Origin: a phage
DNA: 44,509 bases
Direction: 5' to 3' (one strand)
Sequence record: PZ049723.1
Shown piece by piece: positions 7,454-40,031 of this stretch. Under the pieces are notes generated by a model. That model worked only from the letters and a program-made list of their open reading frames with translations, had not been told where the DNA came from and ran no database searches. Position 1 is the first letter of the stretch; every line of letters begins with the position of its first letter. Position numbers and translations under genes: made by a program.

Positions 7454-10096
7454 TCATCGTTTGTAAAGTACACCACCCGGTTTCGTTGCCTTCACGATCT
7501 CGGCCTTGACCGCCTCGGTGATTTGCTTACCGAACGCCTGCGCTGTGCGTGGGTCTGGGCCGCTCACACTGGTGTCTGTTTTACCGGCCCCCGTGTAAAC
7601 GTTAGTCGTCACGACCATACCACCGCCTGCCCCCGACGCGGCAACGCCAAGTTTCCCGTCCGGCCCGCGCTTCAGTGGCATGATGGCCTCGGGTCCCGCC
7701 TCACCCATCAATCCTGCGCCCTTAGCGAACGCCTGGACGCCATAACTGAAAAAGGTAGGCTGGCTTACCACTTTCCCCGAATAGGCCGCCAGATTGCCTC
7801 CTGCGTACGCTCCGCCGTCCGCATTCTTAGTGAGGCCCGAGAAGATAGCGCCGAACAATCCGTTTTTGCCGCCGTCACCACCGAAAGCGCTAACAATCGA
7901 CTTGAACGCCTGCGAGGTAGCCAGCTTGATTAACTCGCTCAGGATGGACTTAACCATATCCTTTGCGTTCAGCTTGCCAGTCTCGAAAAACTCGTTCATC
8001 GTGTCCTGCATAGCGCCGAACGTGAATTTTGTGAGTGACGTCATCTGCGTGTAGCCGTTACCCATTTCATCCACGCTATCCTTAAGCCCACGGCTGAATC
8101 CATCCCATAGTGAGGCGTTAGCACCGGTCTGTGCTTCCTGCACTTCGCGCAGTTTAGACACCGCCAGATCAATATCGGTATCACTAGCGCCCACCCGCTT
8201 AAGGCGGTCAATTAGCTGCAATTCTTCGCGCAGGTTAGCCGCTTCGCGAGTGGAAAGCGCATAGCCCGCCGCGGTGGCTTTTAGCTCGGCGTTCTGGTTC
8301 TTAACGAAGGCGTCGATCTGCGCGTGCGCCTTGACCTGCTTCTCTTTCGCGTCCAGCAATTTGGCTTCTTCGACGATCTGCTCGCGGACTTCCTTCACGC
8401 GCCCGAACTCGACTAATTGCTGCTTCTCTGCTGCCGTTAGTGCTCTTTCTTTGCTCGCAGCGATTAACTGCTCGTTGTCGGCAATCAGCTTGTTAAGGGC
8501 CGCTTGCGCGCGTTGCGTTCGGGTCTGCGTCGATGCGTTGGCTTCGATCTGCTTTCCAGACTCACGAAGCTGGGCTAATTCGCTTCGCGCGACTTCCAGC
8601 ATTTTCAGCCCTGCATCGACTCGAACAGCGGCGGCCTTCTTCGGGGCGGGGTCTTTGTAACGCTCGTTTACCTGCTTCACCGCCTCGGCAAGCTCTTTCT
8701 CGTCAATCACGCCGCGCTTATTCAGCAAATTGAGGCGGGCGATCTCGTCGGCTCGCCGCTTCGCGTTGGTTGCGTACTCCTTCTCGAACGCGGCGCGGTC
8801 GCGGGCGGTGCGGTTGGCCTCTTCGTTCGCCTTTGCTGCTTCGTCCGCGGCACTTGCGTTGTCCCGTTCGGCACGGTTGCGCAGGGTGAGCGACGCCACT
8901 ACTTTTTCCTGGGCGACCAGTTCGCTGTAAAGCATGTTAATACGCGCTTTCTGCGCTTCGGTCATCACCCCACCGGCAGCGTTTACCGCTTTCATCTCGG
9001 CATAGTAAGCCGTGGTCAGTCGCTGCAATGATTCACGCGCTTTCATCTCTGACTCATTCGAGGACTGCGCGCGTCCAACATCCAGGATGGCATCCCACAT
9101 AGATTTCGCTGCCGATGTGACGATGTTCATCGACCGCTCGAGCGTTCCCATGTTGGACTTAATATCGTTGGTCATGGTGGTGAACGACGCCGCGGCTGTT
9201 TTATTAGCCAGCGCCACCGCTTCAGTCTCACGACCCATATCCACCAGGGATTGTACCTGCTGGATCTGCGCTTCGTTTACGACGTGATACTTATCAGCCA
9301 ATGCTCGCAAGCCGCCTACCGGGTCTGTAGACAGCTTCGCCACCGCCGCGACCACATCCTCGATCGGCTGGCTGGACACCTTCGCGAAGTCATTCACTAC
9401 CTTAGCCAGCGTGCCGAAGTCTGCACCCGCTTTCACACCAGCCGCCGCCAGCGCCTGGATTGTGTCACGCGTCTTGCGGAATGACCCGCCCATGCGCTCG
9501 GCGTTCTCTGATAGCACCAGGATCTGGTTTGCCGTTAGGCCGGAAATGTTACCTGACAGCGCCAGCGTCTTGTTAAGCGCTGCGACCTGGTTCTCTGCGC
9601 GGGACGTAATTGCCACCCCTACGCCTAACGTTGCCGTTAGTGCTGCGATGCCGATCCCTACCGGACCGAGGACGCCCGCAACATAACGCAGCGTGTTTCC
9701 CAGTCCGCCAAACGCCCCAGTAAGCTGCGGTAGCTGCTGAAGCATAACGCGGTGGACCGGCATACCCATCTCAAGCGTTACCGCAATATCCTGTAACTGG
9801 AATGCGGCGTTACGCGAGGCAAAGCCCAGGTTTTTGGTCGACATGCCTAACCTGTTGGCGAGTCGCTCCTGTTTCGTCATACCGTCGGCGGCGCGCTGCG
9901 ATTCGTTCGCCAGCTTTTCCATTCCGCCCGCGGCATCACTCGTCACCTTTTTGGATTTGCCGAGGGTGTCGTTTAATTTCTTAACCTTGTTTTCTGTGTT
10001 CTCGGATTTCTGTGCGAAGGAGTCCAGCACAGTATTCGCCGTTCTGATTTGTGCAACATCAGCCTTTAGCGTGATGCCTGCTGCCTGATCTGCCAT
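7454..10096 (-). CDS. Tail tape measure protein
   Basis: 880 aa, Ala/Gln/Glu-rich coiled-coil-like sequence with Gly-rich hydrophobic segments; lies between G/G-T chaperone and minor tail genes; ATG at 10096 with AGGGGA RBS. Confidence 0.85.
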   Translation of the reverse strand: MADQAAGITLKADVAQIRTANTVLDSFAQKSENTENKVKKLNDTLGKSKKVTSDAAGGMEKLANESQRAADGMTKQERLANRLGMSTKNLGFASRNAAFQLQDIAVTLEMGMPVHRVMLQQLPQLTGAFGGLGNTLRYVAGVLGPVGIGIAALTATLGVGVAITSRAENQVAALNKTLALSGNISGLTANQILVLSENAERMGGSFRKTRDTIQALAAAGVKAGADFGTLAKVVNDFAKVSSQPIEDVVAAVAKLSTDPVGGLRALADKYHVVNEAQIQQVQSLVDMGRETEAVALANKTAAASFTTMTNDIKSNMGTLERSMNIVTSAAKSMWDAILDVGRAQSSNESEMKARESLQRLTTAYYAEMKAVNAAGGVMTEAQKARINMLYSELVAQEKVVASLTLRNRAERDNASAADEAAKANEEANRTARDRAAFEKEYATNAKRRADEIARLNLLNKRGVIDEKELAEAVKQVNERYKDPAPKKAAAVRVDAGLKMLEVARSELAQLRESGKQIEANASTQTRTQRAQAALNKLIADNEQLIAASKERALTAAEKQQLVEFGRVKEVREQIVEEAKLLDAKEKQVKAHAQIDAFVKNQNAELKATAAGYALSTREAANLREELQLIDRLKRVGASDTDIDLAVSKLREVQEAQTGANASLWDGFSRGLKDSVDEMGNGYTQMTSLTKFTFGAMQDTMNEFFETGKLNAKDMVKSILSELIKLATSQAFKSIVSAFGGDGGKNGLFGAIFSGLTKNADGGAYAGGNLAAYSGKVVSQPTFFSYGVQAFAKGAGLMGEAGPEAIMPLKRGPDGKLGVAASGAGGGMVVTTNVYTGAGKTDTSVSGPDPRTAQAFGKQITEAVKAEIVKATKPGGVLYKR

Positions 10097-10159
10097 TATG
10101 CAGTCCCCTTTTTTATGCAGTTGCCGATTGACATTGTATCAGCGAATTTAAAACAAACC

Positions 10160-10480
10160 TTATTCAGTCTCAGACGAGGGGGGCCGCCGACCCCCGTCTA
10201 GTCTGAAAGACTGGTGGTTGTCCCGCCTGTCCCGATCGGCTAAAAACCGCGGCAGCACTGGCGGGGACGGGGTGCTGTCCCGCTTTGTCCCGTCCCTTAT
10301 TTGTCCCGCTTTTTGTCCCGCTTAGTTTATGCAATAAAACTGCATAGGTATGCATATTTGCGGGGTGGGACAAAGCGGGACGTCCCGTCTGTCCCGCTTT
10401 TAGTTTATGCAATAAAAGTAAATAGGTATGCGGTTTTTGAGGGGCGGGACAAAACGGGATGTACCGCTTGTCCCGCTTCA
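10160..10480. repeat. Composite non-coding element, copy A (stem-loop + GTCCCGC arrays + TATGCA palindromes)
   Basis: 10160-10214 is a 55-nt GC-rich stem-loop identical except 2 nt to 27166-27220; 10269-10345 matches 27275-27351; about 12 GTCCCGC/GCGGGAC heptamers including palindrome CGGGACGTCCCG; TTAGTTTATGCAATAAAA box present twice. Confidence 0.7.
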
Positions 10481-11157
10481 TTATGCGGGGTTTTGTTGCG
10501 CCATTTCATCAAGCGCGATTCGCTCCATTAGCTTGATATCTTTAAACGCGCGCTGCTCGTTTTCGATACCGTGCATCTTAAATAACCACTCCAACACGCC
10601 GTAGTCGATGCCGTATGCGCCACCAAATCCGGTGCGCCATTGCGTGGAGCAATCTGTGAAGACTGCGACTACCTTCGCGTTGTCGGGCCATAGCGCAACA
10701 GGCGGACAAACATCTTCGGGGGCCGCACCCCATAAACTTGCTGCTAAATCTTCGGAGGGTGGCGGCGGGCCATAAAAGCGTCGCGCCGCCTCAATTAGTT
10801 TTTTTCACGCAACCCCATCAGTTCGAGATAGTACGACGTGTGGAACACACCGAACGCGCGTGGATAGTTGACCACCAGGCGGCGGACGTTCTCCGCGTTA
10901 AATTCGTCCGGCAGATTCCAGCCTTCAGCGACGTGCATGATGGCCTCGACCATAACGTTAAAGCCGTCCGGGTCATTGTCGTCATATTCCGACAGCTTGC
11001 GTTCGGTGTCCTGCATGGTCTGCGAAAATTCGTCGATAGGGCGGTGGCGGACGGTAAACGTCATCTTGCCCGGTTCGTTCTCGCCAGGGCGCGGGATCTC
11101 AATCGGCAGCTTAAAGGTTGGTTTAGGGTCAAGTGTGAAGAGTGGTGCTTTAGCCAT
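10481..11157 (-). CDS. Tail assembly chaperone G-T fusion made by programmed -1 frameshift
   Basis: Canonical slippery heptamer A_AAA_AAC at 10798-10804 (minus strand); the -1 frame stays open for about 105 codons to TAA at 10481; architecture matches the conserved G/G-T pair upstream of tape measure. Confidence 0.55.
10795..11157 (-). CDS. Tail assembly chaperone (lambda G-like)
   Basis: ATG at 11157 with GGAGAA RBS (track ORF begins at TTG 11172); 120 aa; ends GAA AAA AAC TAA, placing a slippery heptamer directly before the stop. Confidence 0.65.
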   Translation of the reverse strand: MAKAPLFTLDPKPTFKLPIEIPRPGENEPGKMTFTVRHRPIDEFSQTMQDTERKLSEYDDNDPDGFNVMVEAIMHVAEGWNLPDEFNAENVRRLVVNYPRAFGVFHTSYYLELMGLREKN

Positions 11158-11172
11158 TGTAGTATTCTCCAA

Positions 11173-27165: not shown

Positions 27166-27351
27166 TTATTCAGTCTCAGACGAGGGGGGCCGTTGACCCC
27201 CGTCTAGTCTGAAAGACTGGGGTGCTGTCCCGCTGTCCCGCTCCTCGCCAGGCCGCGCCATCCGGGGCGGGACGGGGGTGCTGTCCCGCTTTGTCCCGCC
27301 CCTTGGCTGTCCCGCTTTTTGTCCCGCTTAGTTTATGCAATAAAACTGCAT
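27166..27351. repeat. Composite non-coding element, copy B
   Basis: 27166-27220 stem-loop identical to 10160-10214 except the loop (gccgTTga vs gccgCCga); 27275-27351 near-identical to 10269-10345; GTCCCGC arrays and TATGCA-N7-TGCATA palindrome. Confidence 0.7.
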
Positions 27352-27433
27352 AACTATTCACTATATTTACACTACACGGCAACCAATGCGACCAGCTAAA
27401 AACACTCGAAATGGCAACCAATGCGACCAGAAT

Positions 27434-27664
27434 TTAATCTTTTAAATCATCATCGGTCGCAGAAAGCGTGATGGGTATACTCGTTTTAATGACAATATTC
27501 GACGACCCGTAGATGGCCCCGGTGTGCGGATCGGTATAAAAACCGAGCACGCCGCGCTCGACCATATCGTCGATTGCCTTCGTCGATGTGCCACCTTTCG
27601 CCAGCCCAGCCTGGCGGACAATTGCCGATTTACTGAATCCGGTATGGTCCGGGTTATCTTCCAT
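27434..27664 (-). CDS. Small HTH DNA-binding protein (putative regulator)
   Basis: ATG at 27664 overlaps the helicase stop (ATGA); 76 aa; helix-turn-helix-like SKSAIVRQAGLAKGGTSTKAIDDMVERG; a longer in-frame start at 27691 is possible. Confidence 0.5.
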   Translation of the reverse strand: MEDNPDHTGFSKSAIVRQAGLAKGGTSTKAIDDMVERGVLGFYTDPHTGAIYGSSNIVIKTSIPITLSATDDDLKD

Positions 27665-29040
27665 CAGTTTTTCCAGTGCCGCATAAAGCACTTTCTCTTT
27701 TCGTTGCGCGGTCCCGCGGCGTTCTCTTCCTTAACTGCTGCCTTGCCCGCGGCCTTCGCCTGTTCGATGGCGAACGGTGCCAGGGCGACCGGTACGAGGT
27801 ACAGAGTCTCGTCGCGAGGCGTGGAGGCAATCGGCTTGACGTCCCAACCGGCGACCACATCACCGAAGTCCGGCCCGGTGCTGGTGGACTGGTGGGCTTC
27901 GAACGCCTCGGACTTGCGGAGATCCACCTTAACCTTGCACTTGAGCAGGACGAAGCCGCGCGGCGCTTGCTTGATGCCGTTACGTGCCTTTTCGTGATAC
28001 AGGTTAAGTTGTCCCGGCTGGTTGTCGTCCGGCTGTTCCAGGAAGAACGCGGAATCAACAGCACCATGAAGCGCGCCGGACCCGCGTGGCGTTCTGCTGC
28101 CGTTTGCACCTTTAGCAGGGTGGTGGATGACGCCCGCACTGCCGCCTGTATTTTCCGCAATGGCCTTCAGCGCCTTGACCACTTCGCCCATATCGCTGGC
28201 GTTGTTCTCGTCGAACGGTTTAGCATCGGCGGACCGCAGCGCAACAGTCTGGTTGAGTGAGTCGAATGCCACCAGGCCAACCGGTTCGCCGTTAGCGGTG
28301 CGGTTGATAAAGCTGATAACTTCGCGCAAGCCCGATTTGCTGGTGATATCCCAGCCGCGTGACTGCAGATCGATAATGTGCAGCTTGTCCAGGTCGTGCT
28401 CGTATTTAATCTGCAATGCCTCCTTACGCTGGTTGGAGGCTTCGCCACCTTCCGCGTCGAAATAGAAGCAATGAGACTGGACGACCTTCGCACCGCCAAA
28501 CGGAATACCCGCGGCAACCGCACCCATCTGCCCCAGCACGTAGAACGATTTACCGATGTTCGATTCGCCAGCCATATACCAGGTCGATTTGAAGTTAATC
28601 AACCCCTCGATGATCGGGTCGTGCTTACTGAACAGCGCAACCGGCTCGTTGTCCAGGTCTGCATCGGTGCACACGCCGTATTCTTCGCCGTCGCCAACTG
28701 CATCAACGATATGTTCATAGCAGGATTCCACTTCCTCGTCGTCCAGTCCTGGAAGGATGGCGGCGATTTGCTTGCGGGACATATTGTGTGGCTCGACGTT
28801 CAGGTGGTCCGGGATCCCGATAAGACGCAGCGCCAGGTGCTGGTGTCTGTTCAGTTCCGAGCAACACTCGTTGCCGGTGTGCATACACTTGAAACGGATC
28901 TCGCCATCCTTGACCATGATAGCCGTCGACCCTTCGCCGCTGTGCAGATGTTCGTTCGGGCACGGCACTTCATAACCCCGACCGGACGACAGCGGTTCGA
29001 ATCCGGCCTGGAAGCACCAATCCAGAATGCCGTCAGCCAC
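27664..29040 (-). CDS. Replicative helicase with N-terminal Zn finger (RecA-fold, RepA/DnaB-like)
   Basis: Walker A GESNIGKS and Walker B-like LVAFDSL; N-terminal Cys/His cluster (CPNEH ... CMHTGNECC); ORF opens immediately after an in-frame TAA and has only a GTG start. Confidence 0.65.
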   Translation of the reverse strand: MADGILDWCFQAGFEPLSSGRGYEVPCPNEHLHSGEGSTAIMVKDGEIRFKCMHTGNECCSELNRHQHLALRLIGIPDHLNVEPHNMSRKQIAAILPGLDDEEVESCYEHIVDAVGDGEEYGVCTDADLDNEPVALFSKHDPIIEGLINFKSTWYMAGESNIGKSFYVLGQMGAVAAGIPFGGAKVVQSHCFYFDAEGGEASNQRKEALQIKYEHDLDKLHIIDLQSRGWDITSKSGLREVISFINRTANGEPVGLVAFDSLNQTVALRSADAKPFDENNASDMGEVVKALKAIAENTGGSAGVIHHPAKGANGSRTPRGSGALHGAVDSAFFLEQPDDNQPGQLNLYHEKARNGIKQAPRGFVLLKCKVKVDLRKSEAFEAHQSTSTGPDFGDVVAGWDVKPIASTPRDETLYLVPVALAPFAIEQAKAAGKAAVKEENAAGPRNEKRKCFMRHWKN

Positions 29041-29696
29041 CCCATCATCGCCCTGGGTAAGCTCGCGGCGTACTTCCTCTTCTCCACCCCCAGCTTATCC
29101 GCCAGGCGGAGCAGACGACGGACGCTGGCGCGTTTGCCGTAGTGGCACTTAACGACAGACTGCTGATGTGGCAGGTACATAAGGCGGTTTGTGTCTTTAG
29201 TACAATCGTCGAAGTCCACATCTGACAGACCCAGTTGGTGTAATAGTGCATACTGGACGCGGCCCAGGTCTTCAGCCGGTACAGGCTTGTCCGTGAGCAC
29301 CAGGAAACGGGCGCAACGCGTGCCGCCTTTCAGCGGGTGGCGGTCGCCGGTTGTGGTGTGAAATACGTGCTCCAGTCCCGCGTCGATGAACGCCTTACGG
29401 CAGCGGCGTAGGGTGCGGGTGTCGGTACGGTCGATATCGAAGAACATGATCGAGCGGTCCACCGCACTGGTCTTACGACGCAATCCGTCACGGGTATACG
29501 CCACGATGCCATCGGCCTTACGCTTGCGGCGCGCATACTCGGCTTTATCTTCCGTCTTGTTGATATGCACCGAGGAGATTTCTTTCGCATCATTGATAAA
29601 GGCGAAAAACTCTTCGGTAGTCATCTGGAAGTTTTCCGCCCTGGCTTTTTCGCCTTTTTTAGCGGGTCGTGTTACAGCGAATTTAATTAAGCTCAT
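28851..29696 (-). CDS. Primase-like replication protein, N-terminal part; 3' end overlaps helicase out of frame
   Basis: ATG at 29696; DxD-like FFDIDRTD and HTTTGDRHP motifs; last ~60 codons are Arg/Ser/Cys-rich and read as the wrong frame of the helicase N-terminus; G5 run at 29087-29091. Confidence 0.4.
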   Translation of the reverse strand: MSLIKFAVTRPAKKGEKARAENFQMTTEEFFAFINDAKEISSVHINKTEDKAEYARRKRKADGIVAYTRDGLRRKTSAVDRSIMFFDIDRTDTRTLRRCRKAFIDAGLEHVFHTTTGDRHPLKGGTRCARFLVLTDKPVPAEDLGRVQYALLHQLGLSDVDFDDCTKDTNRLMYLPHQQSVVKCHYGKRASVRRLLRLADKLGVEKRKYAASLPRAMMGWLTAFWIGASRPDSNRCRPVGVMKCRARTNICTAAKGRRLSWSRMARSVSSVCTPATSVARN

Positions 29697-29706
29697 TGCC
29701 GTGGCC

Positions 29707-30036
29707 TTACTTAGAAGTTTTATTATTGCGTACCCAAGAGCGCACTGTGCTCTGATTAATTCCGGTCAACTCGGCAATCATCGCCCAGGATTTGCCCTCG
29801 GCGCGCAAACGGATAACCTGCTTTTTGTATTCTTCCATTTCTTCATTGTGTTTTTGCAGCTTGCTTGCTGCCGTACCGTTGAGTAATTCCAGCCGGGCGC
29901 GCAATTCTTTTTCGACACTGCGCAGGCGCTCGATTTCAAATAACACCGCACCCACGGCATCGGTATAAGCCCATGACCGGCTTGTCTCACTGCAAACAGT
30001 CTTCGTTAACATTTCGATTGCGTCGTTTACATTCAT
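29707..30036 (-). CDS. HTH transcriptional regulator (LuxR/sigma region-4-like C-terminal HTH)
   Basis: 109 aa; C-terminal SWAMIAELTGINQSTVRSWV; first gene of the leftward operon from the divergent promoter region. Confidence 0.6.
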   Translation of the reverse strand: MNVNDAIEMLTKTVCSETSRSWAYTDAVGAVLFEIERLRSVEKELRARLELLNGTAASKLQKHNEEMEEYKKQVIRLRAEGKSWAMIAELTGINQSTVRSWVRNNKTSK

Positions 30037-30241: not shown

Positions 30242-30437
30242 TCTCCCCGTCGACAGGATGCAGGACGCAAACTGGAGAGGGGCAACGCAGGGGCCGGATC
30301 GAAGTGTCAGGATTCCCAACCGTGATTATATAACCAGGTCCACTACCCGAAGGGGAGAACGCGTAACCTGGCAATATGTTAAGGCCACCGACGAAGTTAA
30401 CTGCCGACACCTAAACTTAACCAATCGGAGATATACC

Positions 30438-30950
30438 ATGTTTGAGCAAATCGTAAACCTGATCACTCGCGGCGTAGTAGCACTGGAAACCATCGCTAAA
30501 CATTATGAAACCGTTGGCGCTGCCGTTGGTAAGCAGGAGGACAAGAAGCCGTCTAAGGCCAAAAAAGAAGTTGTCGAAGATGACGACGATGACGCCGAAG
30601 ACGAAAAACCGGCTAAATCTAAAAAAGCCCCGGCGAAAGGCAAGGCCAAAAAAGAAGTCGTAGAAGACGACGACGATGCCGAAGACGAAAAACCGGCTAA
30701 GGCTAAGAAAGCACCGGCGAAAGGCAAAGGTAAGAAAGATGCCGATCCGCTGGCAGAGATGCGCGACGAGATCAAACAATATGCCGCGATTATCGCTGGC
30801 GGTGATGACGACGACGCGAACGACGAATTCGACGACCTGCTGGAGTCGTTCGAGATCAAATCAATCGCCAAGCTGGAAGATGACGACGTCGAAGACTTCC
30901 ACACAGAGCTAAAAGAAATCGTCGAAACCTATTTCGAATTGGAAGATTAA
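30438..30950 (+). CDS. Highly acidic tandem-repeat protein; first early gene (DNA-mimic / anti-restriction candidate)
   Basis: ATG at 30438 with GGAG RBS; 170 aa; two copies of KKEVVEDDDDxAEDEKPAKxKKAPAKGK and acidic C-terminus; followed by terminator. Confidence 0.65.
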   Translation: MFEQIVNLITRGVVALETIAKHYETVGAAVGKQEDKKPSKAKKEVVEDDDDDAEDEKPAKSKKAPAKGKAKKEVVEDDDDAEDEKPAKAKKAPAKGKGKKDADPLAEMRDEIKQYAAIIAGGDDDDANDEFDDLLESFEIKSIAKLEDDDVEDFHTELKEIVETYFELED

Positions 30951-33129: not shown

Positions 33130-33194
33130 AGCAACCAAGCCGAACGGGGTGGCTTCCAATAGCCCCGATACATGTGAAAATGAGGAATTGGAAA

Positions 33195-33980
33195 ATGGCT
33201 AAAGTCAACCTGAAAAATGTGCGTGTATGTTTCCTGAAAATTTGGGAACGTGATACCCCTAAACAGGATGGACAAAAACCAGCATACCGTGCCGTGATTC
33301 TTCTTGATAAAGAAGATCCGCAGGTGGACAAAGTGGAAGCGGCAGCGCGCGCAGTGCTCACCGACAAGCTGAAATCTGAGAAGAATGCCGATAAGTGGAT
33401 GGACCGCCACTACGCCCAGGATTCTAAGGAATGCGCAGTTCGTGACGGTGACGAGCGCGACGAAGTAACCGAAGAATTCGAAGGCATGTTGTACATCAAC
33501 GCTAAATCGTTCAAACAGCCAAACATTCAAACGTCACTCGGCGAGAAGCAGACCGAACAGGGTCTGACCGTAGAAGGCGACGAGATTGAAGGCCAGGAGA
33601 TCTACTCCGGTTGTTATTGCAACGTGTCCCTTGATATCTGGGCGTGGAACAATACCAACGGCAAGGGGCTCGGTGCTGGCTTGCTGGGTCTGCGATTCCG
33701 TGAAGACGGCGAAGCCTTCGGAGGTGGCGGGTCTTCATGTTCCGACGAAGACCTGGACAACGACGACGAAGACGAAAGCCCGCGTAAGTCCAAAAAGTCA
33801 AAACGTCGTGATGACGATGATGAAGATGACAAGCCGCGCAAGTCCAAGAAATCCAAGCGCCGCGATGACGACGACGATGAGGAAGATGAAAAACCTCGCA
33901 AACGCCGCAAGTCCCGCGATGACGAAGATGAGGACGAAGACGACGAAGACGAAGCACCACGTAAACGTCGCCGCCGTTAA
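33195..33980 (+). CDS. ssDNA-binding protein (DUF2815-like) with unusual alternating basic/acidic repeat tail
   Basis: ATG at 33195 with GAGGA RBS; 261 aa; C-terminal ~80 aa are repeats of PRKSKKSKRRDDDDE-type units ending in RKRRRR. Confidence 0.55.
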   Translation: MAKVNLKNVRVCFLKIWERDTPKQDGQKPAYRAVILLDKEDPQVDKVEAAARAVLTDKLKSEKNADKWMDRHYAQDSKECAVRDGDERDEVTEEFEGMLYINAKSFKQPNIQTSLGEKQTEQGLTVEGDEIEGQEIYSGCYCNVSLDIWAWNNTNGKGLGAGLLGLRFREDGEAFGGGGSSCSDEDLDNDDEDESPRKSKKSKRRDDDDEDDKPRKSKKSKRRDDDDDEEDEKPRKRRKSRDDEDEDEDDEDEAPRKRRRR

Positions 33981-39387: not shown

Positions 39388-39707
39388 ATACTACATTCGA
39401 AGCCATTGATTTTTCGGTTGCAATGACTAACCAGTTATTCTCCTACGACAGCAAAACCGGAGTCATCCGTCTGAAGTCCACAGGCTGCAAAATTGGCAAC
39501 ATCAATACTGCCGATGGTGGCACACGTATCGAATGCAACGGCAAAACGCTATCGGGCGCCCGCGTGGCGTGGATCATTGAGACTGGCAATACAATCCCTC
39601 CAGGCTATGCCGTAGTGTGCCGTCAACGCACACCAGGCCATTACGGCAACCGCATTAGTAACCTGTATCTGGTAGACGTTGCGCGCGACCCAAATTTTTA
39701 TTCGTAA
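39384..39707 (+). CDS. HNH-like (HNH_3/NUMOD-type) endonuclease-like protein
   Basis: 107 aa; pattern ARVAWIIETGNTIPPGYAVV ... GNRISNLYLV resembles HNH_3 cores, but the usual first His is not evident. Confidence 0.4.
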   Translation: MNTTFEAIDFSVAMTNQLFSYDSKTGVIRLKSTGCKIGNINTADGGTRIECNGKTLSGARVAWIIETGNTIPPGYAVVCRQRTPGHYGNRISNLYLVDVARDPNFYS

Positions 39708-39708
39708 A

Positions 39709-39741
39709 TTGGTTGCATAACCGTATTGGTTGCATTATATT
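39709..39741 (+). promoter_or_regulatory. Promoter-like sequence formed by tandem TTGGTTGCA motifs
   Basis: TTGGTTGCA at 39709-39717 and 39726-39734; TTGCAT (39713-39718), 17-bp spacer, TATATT (39736-39741). Confidence 0.4.
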
Positions 39742-39743
39742 GA

Positions 39744-39769
39744 GGGTGTCCGGTTTGGACGCCCTTTTT
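39744..39769 (+). terminator. Rho-independent terminator overlapping predicted transcription start
   Basis: gggtgtcc-ggttt-ggacgccc 8-bp stem (one G-U pair) followed by TTTTT. Confidence 0.5.
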
Positions 39770-39788
39770 AATACCCGGAGACAGTGAT

Positions 39789-40031
39789 ATGAAATCATTA
39801 TTTTTCGACTACGACGGCGACCTTCGATTTTGGGTGCTTCTCACCCTCATGATTGCCGGTTGTATTGGCATACCTTCGACGGCTATTTACTACACGGAAC
39901 GCTACGAATGCAAGACCGTGTATGCCGAGCAAACCGGACGCAATACCCAATGGCGATATGGTGTCTGCTGGGTTGAAATGGATGGCAAATTTATTCCTCG
40001 CGATGAGATTCGCACAACGGAGCTTAAATAG
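39789..40031 (+). CDS. Small membrane protein / possible lipoprotein
   Basis: 80 aa; hydrophobic helix WVLLTLMIAGCIGIP with Cys in lipobox-like context; GGAG RBS. Confidence 0.45.
   Translation: MKSLFFDYDGDLRFWVLLTLMIAGCIGIPSTAIYYTERYECKTVYAEQTGRNTQWRYGVCWVEMDGKFIPRDEIRTTELK

Follow-up and report, generated by a model that had tools for sequence, protein, structure and literature searches.

What is a duplicated non-coding element doing in the middle of a phage tail operon, where the genes are otherwise tightly packed? The question is raised by sequence record PZ049723.1, a stretch of 44,509 nucleotides (the whole of it is referred to as the window), of which the 44.5 kb represent the complete genome of a Dhillonvirus, an HK578-like virulent siphophage of Escherichia coli. 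One copy of the element (copy A) fills the gap between the genes for the T extension of the tail assembly chaperone and the tape measure protein (TMP), while the other (copy B) is located just downstream of a primase-helicase gene. A sequence-only reading of the window noted the duplication and named a replication origin, a regulator-binding site and a centromere-like site as options without choosing among them. The analysis described here favours the first: with somewhat better than even probability, the module is a cis-acting origin of phage replication, for which copy B would be the ancestral and probably the primary site, and copy A a duplicate kept under selection in the T-TMP gap. This reading is proposed because elements composed of a lineage-specific repeat, an AT-rich stretch and a GC-rich hairpin recur 3′ of the same gene in related phages, because CGGGAC arrays lie directly 3′ of Prim-Pol/AAA_25 genes in unrelated phages, and because the protein encoded next to copy B joins a RepB′-like AEP primase, a RepA-like helicase and a winged-helix tail.

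The primase-helicase gene was compared among five lineages, and in all of them a non-coding gap of 290-580 bp was found 3′ of the gene, in which repeats cluster and which also contains an AT-rich stretch and a GC-rich palindrome. The repeat is GCGGGAC in Dhillonvirus and its 72%-identical relative L376, GGGGAGA in the Salmonella phage FSL SP-031 (7 of the 9 genome copies lie in that gap, and the GTGAATAGTTATGCA box, common to Dhillonvirus and SP-031, is kept), ACTCGCAA in L377, TTCCGCACA in L378, and AGGGACA in L379. The repeat thus co-varies with the lineage of the putative initiator, five repeats for five lineages, and the tail is the most diverged part of this protein. A position beside the putative initiator gene is shared by copy B, the elements of the five lineages and those of the unrelated Prim-Pol/AAA_25 phages, but not by copy A.

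The unrelated phages were identified by screening IMG/VR with the heptamer pair alone as the query. We found 30 non-Dhillonvirus loci (L320, L222, L242, L231, L243, L248, L302, L306, L272, L234, L240 and others) with 6-15 CGGGAC hexamers per 300 bp, in DNA of 37-72% GC. Typically such an array is a series of direct repeats, in many cases accompanied by a GC-rich hairpin enclosed by inverted GGGAC/GTCCC; a GC-rich palindrome closes several of them (for instance L222, L242 and L308), and in several others iteron clusters of opposite orientation surround an AT-rich spacer of about 50 bp. For at least 7 of the 30 loci, the array starts right past a gene with a homologous helicase domain (tblastn E-values of 1e-5 to 1e-10), and for L320 and L231 Pfam confirmed the presence of both Prim-Pol and AAA_25; 6 further arrays adjoin a second family of large proteins that carry a P-loop motif and have no Pfam match. 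The opposite-strand open reading frames (ORFs) that appeared in a comparison of convergent genes at these arrays look spurious. Another scan of IMG/VR with the AT-rich 14-mer TTTATGCAATAAAA was unspecific, and its loci L004-L123 were discarded as chance matches.

The candidate initiator itself was examined by structure prediction. Its N-terminal 204 residues are predicted to form an AEP primase fold (pLDDT 94.5), for which the best structural matches in Foldseek were the PrimPol of cyanophage S-2L (E 2.4e-6) and the catalytic domain of RSF1010 RepB′ in complex with ssiA DNA (3h25; E 1.8e-3, probability 0.99). The core is an AAA_25 domain of the RepA helicase type (E 2.8e-19), and the protein therefore combines the RepB′-like AEP primase and the RepA-like helicase of an RSF1010-type system. 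The last 85 residues, here called the tail, are predicted to fold as a winged helix (pLDDT 81), with MarR/MepR-DNA complexes and histone H1 among its structural neighbours. Between Dhillonvirus and FSL SP-031 the protein identity is 64% for the helicase, 30% for the primase domain and 27% for the tail, and it is in the latter two that recognition of lineage-specific DNA would be expected.

All lysis and structural genes as well as the leftward early operon, including every neighbour of the two copies, are on the minus strand, and the element must therefore be read on this strand; both the gene strand and the contact of copy B with the primase-helicase gene had been missed by the sequence-only reading. 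The components of the two modules and the adjoining replication gene are as follows.

10165..10355, minus strand: copy A core module, homologous to copy B and in the same orientation
10165..10213, minus strand: copy A hairpin, 49 nt
10220..10321, minus strand: copy A heptamers (at 10220, 10229, 10277, 10287, 10303 and 10315) and GC-rich middle
10322..10355, minus strand: copy A AT box 1, with TGCATAAA at 10326-10333
10356..10480, minus strand: copy A extra units, two of about 78 bp, with heptamer dyads at 10365-10397 and 10444-10476 and the AT box of unit 2 at 10400-10433
27171..27361, minus strand: copy B, complete module at the probable ancestral position, starting 73 bp past the primase-helicase stop codon
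27171..27219, minus strand: copy B hairpin, with lower stem CAGTCT/AGACTG, invariant internal TTCAGACT, upper stem AGACG plus G-run / C-run plus CGTCT, and a variable loop
27227..27241, minus strand: copy B proximal GCGGGAC pair, 8-bp spacing
27242..27282, minus strand: copy B variable GC-rich middle, with an inverted heptamer at 27267-27273
27283..27327, minus strand: copy B array of four GCGGGAC, with spacings of 12, 16 and 10 bp from the AT box
27328..27361, minus strand: copy B AT-rich box, with TGCATAAA at 27332-27339 and GTGAATAGTTATGCA at 27347-27361 (minus-strand sequences)
27434..29696, minus strand: primase-helicase gene, candidate initiator (AEP primase, Cys/His motif, AAA_25 RepA-like helicase, winged-helix tail)

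The duplication extends over 195 nt (10160-10354 versus 27166-27360) with 83% ungapped identity. The two copies had been described as near-identical, which holds for the hairpin end, for the AT box and, among the four distal heptamers, for the first two, but not for the diverged GC-rich middle of about 60 nt. In the orientation of transcription, the shared order is an AT-rich box with TGCATAAA, four GCGGGAC heptamers, a GC-rich stretch with an inverted heptamer, two further heptamers, and the hairpin. The latter is 49 nt in length rather than 55 nt as first proposed, while the reported 2-nt difference between the loops was confirmed (TCGGCGG versus TCAACGG in the transcription sense); its folding z-score is -2.4 to -3.1 and about equal on both strands. 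Including its extra units, the module of copy A covers 10165-10480 and takes up most of the non-coding gap, which spans 10097-10480 and measures 384 bp instead of 385 bp.

Exact GTCCCGC/GCGGGAC heptamers are found 24 times in the window against 8.5 ± 2.8 expected, a number reached by none of 100 shuffled sequences, and 15 of the 24 are inside the two elements; with one mismatch allowed, copy A carries 13 and copy B 7. Clustering of short repeats far above chance is a feature of iteron-type origins. The heptamer arrays noticed beforehand are thus real, but their spacing of 8-9, 10, 12 and 16 bp, fixed and irregular, is helical in a loose sense only. The palindrome CGGGACGTCCCG, attributed to each copy, is confined to the extra unit of copy A, and the single partial repeat reported there turned out to be two units with the layout inverted heptamer / AT-rich / direct heptamer. 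The AT box occurs in three copies (starting at 10322, 10400 and 27328), and the windows of at least 70% AT around them (27316-27379, 10310-10359 and 10392-10441) stand out from a genome of 55% GC as candidate unwinding elements. Although the inverted repeat TATGCA-N7-TGCATA is present in the window, it is not conserved in relatives, in which only TGCATAAA (in both copies) and GTGAATAGTTATGCA (in copy B) are retained; in copy B these two are kept in every sequence, the second base of GTGAATAGTTATGCA being G, A or C. Since most of the copy B middle (the equivalent of about 27242-27275) is deleted in phage EE09, along with the proximal heptamer pair, this part of the module appears to be dispensable. 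A fourth TGCATAAA box was noticed on the minus strand at 10112-10119, followed by AAAGGGGAC and overlapping the ribosome-binding site of TMP, and has the appearance of another degenerate remnant of an AT-box/heptamer unit.

In order to see which parts of the module are under constraint, we used the mean pairwise identity across 15-18 phages. The third codon positions of the adjacent genes gave 0.74-0.78, the hairpin loop 0.58-0.72 (0.58 for the copy B loop), the spacers 0.81-0.82, the heptamers 0.86-0.89 (0.89 in copy A), TGCATAAA 0.97-1.0 (0.97 in copy A), the hairpin stems 0.987, and the unpaired internal TTCAGACT 0.99-1.0. Because the stems and also the unpaired TTCAGACT exceed the neutral sites, selection appears to act on the sequence of the hairpin, beyond its mere ability to fold. 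When the stem was parsed by hand (CAGTCT/AGACTG for the lower part, AGACG-G-run / C-run-CGTCT for the upper part), this register fitted two informative variants, of which one is a compensatory event: copy A of the most diverged Dhillonvirus has G:C in place of an A:T pair in the upper stem, together with an indel at an unpaired linker position. No protein-coding gene with homologues spans the element. A 103-aa ORF (10170..10481, minus strand) is annotated in some GenBank records, but its ATG is missing in 11 of 17 relatives, the frames differ, and indels that are not in triplets break the frame in most of them.

For the two intergenic regions, matches of 80-95% identity were obtained in about 159 phage records, nearly all of them Dhillonviruses of Escherichia and Shigella. 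Polymorphisms are common to copies A and B across phages, and derived features are common to both within the diverged phage; the two copies therefore seem to evolve in concert, which speaks for a common function. FSL SP-031 has one repeat cluster only, with no second, and the T-TMP junction of more distant tail operons shows no gap in L374 and a different insertion in L372, so that copy B is best regarded as the ancestral site and copy A as an addition in the Dhillonvirus lineage. The alternative insertion in L372 also suggests that the T-TMP junction is a hotspot for insertions; there (L372:3930-4838, 60% tail-tube identity) a clean intrinsic terminator, a reverse-strand ORF and GCAACCAA repeats replace the heptamer module. 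The module has no match by blastn in 5,426 E. coli genomes and 72,556 plasmids, and would thus be neither a host nor a plasmid element.

The arrangement of two distant copies has its closest precedent in SPP1, a 44-kb lytic siphophage with two origins, oriL and oriR, about 13 kb apart, both of which consist of direct repeats together with an AT-rich unwinding element; one is at the initiator gene and the other in an intergenic segment that breaks the order of the virion-assembly genes, and the initiator binds both, the second being proposed to stall forks and to trigger concatemer synthesis (PMC6316719). Here, likewise, two distant copies share the same repeats and AT-rich element, one at the putative initiator gene and one among the late genes. 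Copy A appears to parallel the oriL/oriR layout, and the recombination toolkit appears comparable: the phage encodes an exonuclease and a Gp2.5/Enc34-type single-stranded DNA (ssDNA)-binding/annealing protein, and a VRR-NUC nuclease is annotated in relatives. The two systems have no sequence homology. SPP1 employs the gp38 initiator with a separate loader, a DnaB-type helicase and the host primase, and its oriL is inside the initiator gene, whereas the Dhillonvirus module is 3′ of the gene for a single AEP-primase/RepA-helicase/winged-helix candidate initiator and includes a sequence-invariant hairpin.

For the parts of the module and the protein, the origin oriV of the IncQ plasmid RSF1010 is the nearer model, with the proteins RepC, RepA and RepB′ and the hairpins ssiA and ssiB, whose signal is read sequence-specifically by RepB′ (PMC8567376). 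The same kinds of cis module (an initiator-binding site and hairpin priming signals) and the same three activities are found in both, and sequence-specific recognition of the RepB′ type would explain the invariant stems and the free loop of the phage hairpin. RSF1010, however, uses three separate proteins and Dhillonvirus one fused polypeptide, which has a winged-helix tail in place of a RepC homologue, and the order of modules differs. The Sulfolobus plasmid pRN1 encodes ORF904, in which a C-terminal winged helix is joined to an AEP primase and a helicase, preceded by a small repressor gene, and its origin, located just 3′ of the gene, is a stem-loop whose sequence is lineage-specific and whose structure is conserved; similar phage replicons were noted by the authors (PMC4234260). 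The protein architecture, the small gene upstream and the stem-loop 3′ of the gene are shared with Dhillonvirus, while pRN1 has an SF3 helicase and no iterons, in contrast to the RecA-type AAA_25 helicase and the prominent iteron arrays described here. In the satellite phage P4, the alpha protein is one primase-helicase with a C-terminal DNA-binding domain that binds iterons (as summarised in PMC4234260). This protein differs from that of Dhillonvirus in its Toprim-type primase and SF3 helicase, and P4 has no known hairpin module. P4 needs two separated cis regions, ori and crr, with the same iterons. The layout, which has these precedents, has most likely not been described before for the Dhillonvirus group; our literature searches on GCGGGAC/GTCCCGC and on Dhillonvirus origins or promoters found nothing relevant.

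With these systems as a guide, replication from the proposed origin could proceed as follows. The primase-helicase would bind the GCGGGAC heptamers via its C-terminal winged-helix tail; the AT-rich box of about 34 bp (TGCATAAA / GTGAATAGTTATGCA) would then melt, and the RepA-like helicase domain would be loaded. Unwinding would extrude the GC-rich hairpin with its invariant stems and unpaired TTCAGACT; the RepB′-like AEP domain would recognise this hairpin sequence-specifically as a signal for priming, in the manner of RepB′ with the ssiA/ssiB hairpins of RSF1010, and the primer would be extended by the phage polymerase of the Pol I type. Copy A might fire as a second origin, or else might be an initiator-bound, fork-stalling site that promotes the switch to recombination-dependent concatemer synthesis, as has been proposed for SPP1 oriR. 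A far-reaching extension, which we put forward as a speculation with a small chance of being correct, is that the module exemplifies a widespread, undescribed class of composite phage origins (iteron array, AT-rich box and lineage-specific GC hairpin, served by single-polypeptide AEP-primase/RepA-helicase/winged-helix replicases), and that the copy in the tail operon is a programmed initiator-bound barrier that stalls forks and/or RNA polymerase between the genes for the chaperone and the tape measure protein, and so couples the theta-to-concatemer switch to the expression of late genes.

Several observations weigh against an origin. Each module has one hairpin and both copies point in the same direction, unlike the two ssi sites of RSF1010 on opposite strands. 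The structural neighbours of the tail are all winged-helix DNA binders, but their Foldseek E-values are weak (0.03-0.3), and the distant Prim-Pol helicases that share CGGGAC have tails unlike the Dhillonvirus tail in sequence, which fits poorly with a simple model of one tail for one repeat. A small HTH (helix-turn-helix) gene precedes the primase-helicase gene in most lineages, and the co-variation of the repeat may equally well track that regulator. The RNAalifold consensus of the hairpin gave zero formal covariation in its own register. GC skew as an indicator of the origin tracks gene orientation and is thus confounded. For where or how Dhillonvirus replication starts, we found nothing published, and no replication data in the literature searched. 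Finally, both copies are within long transcription units and co-oriented with them, a setting in which a late regulatory element is also plausible.

This setting leads to transcriptional control, the regulator-binding option of the sequence-only reading, which we regard as the main alternative, possible but unlikely: the heptamers would be an operator or roadblock for a regulator such as the 109-aa HTH protein (HTH109), insulating the late genes or activating a late promoter in the AT box, with the hairpin in the leader. Besides the common orientation, the locations fit such a role, since copy B is exactly where the early replication genes give way to the lysis/structural genes, and copy A is upstream of TMP and the distal tail genes; the repeats could track the HTH gene that accompanies the primase-helicase, and an invariant extended -10-like sequence, CTGATACAAT, lies just past the hairpin of copy A. 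The AT boxes, however, contain no sigma-70-like promoter (no -35/-10 site with 16-18 bp spacing was detected, and the essential last T of the candidate -10 hexamer is a variable position), and TGCATAAA is not upstream of other late gene clusters. Homologues of HTH109 were found by phmmer in Dhillonviruses only, none of them near the foreign CGGGAC arrays, and its role as a universal neighbour of the arrays was discarded; the small HTH genes upstream belong to unrelated families in different lineages, while in unrelated phages it is the primase-helicase genes that the arrays follow. For HTH109 a better candidate operator is ATTGGTTGC, a dispersed motif that overlaps sigma-70-like promoters. A role at the RNA level, as a late-transcript leader (put-like antitermination, RNase III processing or a stabiliser) with the hairpin as the active part and GCGGGAC as protein-binding or pairing sites, is improbable. 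The hairpin is stable (-27 to -28 kcal/mol for 58 nt, -30 to -32 kcal/mol for a 76-nt segment, z about -3) and in each copy belongs to the transcribed strand, only the sense strand allows pairing of the G:U-compatible variants at the stem top, and many terminators are predicted in the long late operon of relatives; putL/putR of HK022 are likewise two copies of a structured element. Yet the antisense strand folds equally well, and a search of the whole window against Rfam 15 at the gathering threshold gave no match. Heptamers in both orientations, and arrays around AT-rich spacers elsewhere, suggest that duplex DNA is recognised; the internal segment, which is unpaired, varies as little as the stems, and the link is to the replication gene, not to operon starts. 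The hairpin was also rejected as an intrinsic terminator, as the terminator scan did not pick it up on either strand, and the absence of a directly following U-run, noted beforehand, was confirmed for both strands; in copy A the run UUUGUUUU lies 7 nt past the stem, with none in copy B.

The origin reading leaves room for a copy A that has no function of its own, being a selfish or near-neutral duplication of the origin cassette at a permissive site, but we judge this rather improbable. The T-TMP junction is indeed variable in the group, being tight in L374 and filled with a terminator and a reverse-strand ORF in L372, FSL SP-031 manages with its single cluster, and the AT box of copy A is more degenerate than that of copy B. 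Against this, copy A is present in 154 of 159 Dhillonvirus records at 80% coverage or more, among them already the most diverged one found, it evolves together with copy B, and its heptamers (0.89), TGCATAAA (0.97) and stems (0.99) are all above the neutral level of 0.74. Direct repeats of 190 bp thus seem to have been retained although recombination between A and B would delete 17 kb of essential genes, an arrangement that should be disfavoured unless useful. Least probable, and only barely worth considering, is a packaging (cos/pac) or partition (centromere-like) site. Repeated binding sites beside bendable AT-rich DNA recall cosB and parC/parS, and in one GenBank record, PTXU06, the point of linearisation is about 110 bp away from copy B. 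The terminase genes, however, are 5 kb from copy B, and the phage is virulent, with no ParA/ParB-type genes seen among the scanned proteins, which leaves the centromere-like option unsupported. By PhageTerm, the 10-nt 5′ cos of Dhillonvirus EE09 is between its genes 69 and 1 (PMC10673088), which by synteny corresponds to about 39.7 kb of the window, distant from both copies. The EE09 cos decamer ATCTTAAGGG is absent from the window, and the exclusion of cos rests on synteny; in the expected region, 39707-39789, it is absent even with one mismatch, and two ATTGGTTGC motifs are located there.

If copy B and its neighbour are indeed origin and initiator, the finding is of use beyond this genome, since Dhillonviruses are common and easily isolated E. 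coli phages that are used both in the BASEL collection and for studies of therapy and biocontrol. A candidate origin, a candidate initiator and repeat/protein pairs that co-vary across genera would open origin specificity to direct test, and phage engineers would have a cis element to leave intact or to exploit. The CGGGAC arrays 3′ of Prim-Pol/AAA_25 genes suggest a possible genomic signature for predicting the origins of metagenomic phages with self-contained primase-helicases, and with the second copy, the SPP1 oriR model for the change from theta to concatemer synthesis would gain a Gram-negative counterpart.

The genes that flank copy A, and the first gene of the operon upstream of copy B, are listed below.

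7454..10096, minus strand: TMP gene (Pfam TMP_2 and Tape_meas_lam_C)
10481..11172, minus strand: tail assembly chaperone G with T extension (G at 10798-11172, T at 10484-10801, stop codon at 10481-10483)
29707..30036, minus strand: 109-aa HTH protein gene, first of the operon (HTH_23 / sigma-70 region 4-like)

By Pfam, the assignments around copy A include the tail tube, Phage_TAC_4 for G and DUF1799 for T. Two single-A deletions in A-runs, at about 29082 and about 27702 (AAA to AA; AAAAA to AAAA), divide the essential primase-helicase gene into three reading frames when it is compared with its HK578 counterpart, which is intact at 2262 nt; homopolymer errors in the sequencing of this assembly are the most likely cause. 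A similar split is seen in the EE09 record.

The CTGATACAAT sequence noted above is at 10133-10142 of the minus strand (TGnTACAAT), between the copy A hairpin and the TMP start in 17 of 17 phages, and is a possible promoter for restarting the transcription of TMP and the distal tail genes; in the most diverged phage, AAATTCGCATATTCAT takes the equivalent place after both of its copies. The dispersed motif ATTGGTTGC has 14 exact copies (16050, 16063, 26283, 26977, 27008, 27098, 27379, 27414, 30226, 36751, 39708, 39725, 41630 and 44460) and 26 with one mismatch, against 12.3 expected, mostly in gaps between long ORFs and often paired. It lies to either side of copy B and, upstream of the first small late gene, overlaps a sigma-70-like promoter (TTGCAT-N17-TACATT). 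A role as the promoter/operator motif of the phage is probable, with the 109-aa HTH protein as a candidate binder; as for the heptamers, this protein is an alternative candidate binder, or else an autoregulator. The related motif GCAACCAA is found in L372 and L370. Tandem and dispersed repeats of 44-84 nt were noticed at 30564-30731 and 33744-33964, within the ORFs 30258..30950 and 33174..33980 (Enc34/Gp2.5-type ssDNA-binding protein), and suggest acidic/lysine-rich peptide repeats.

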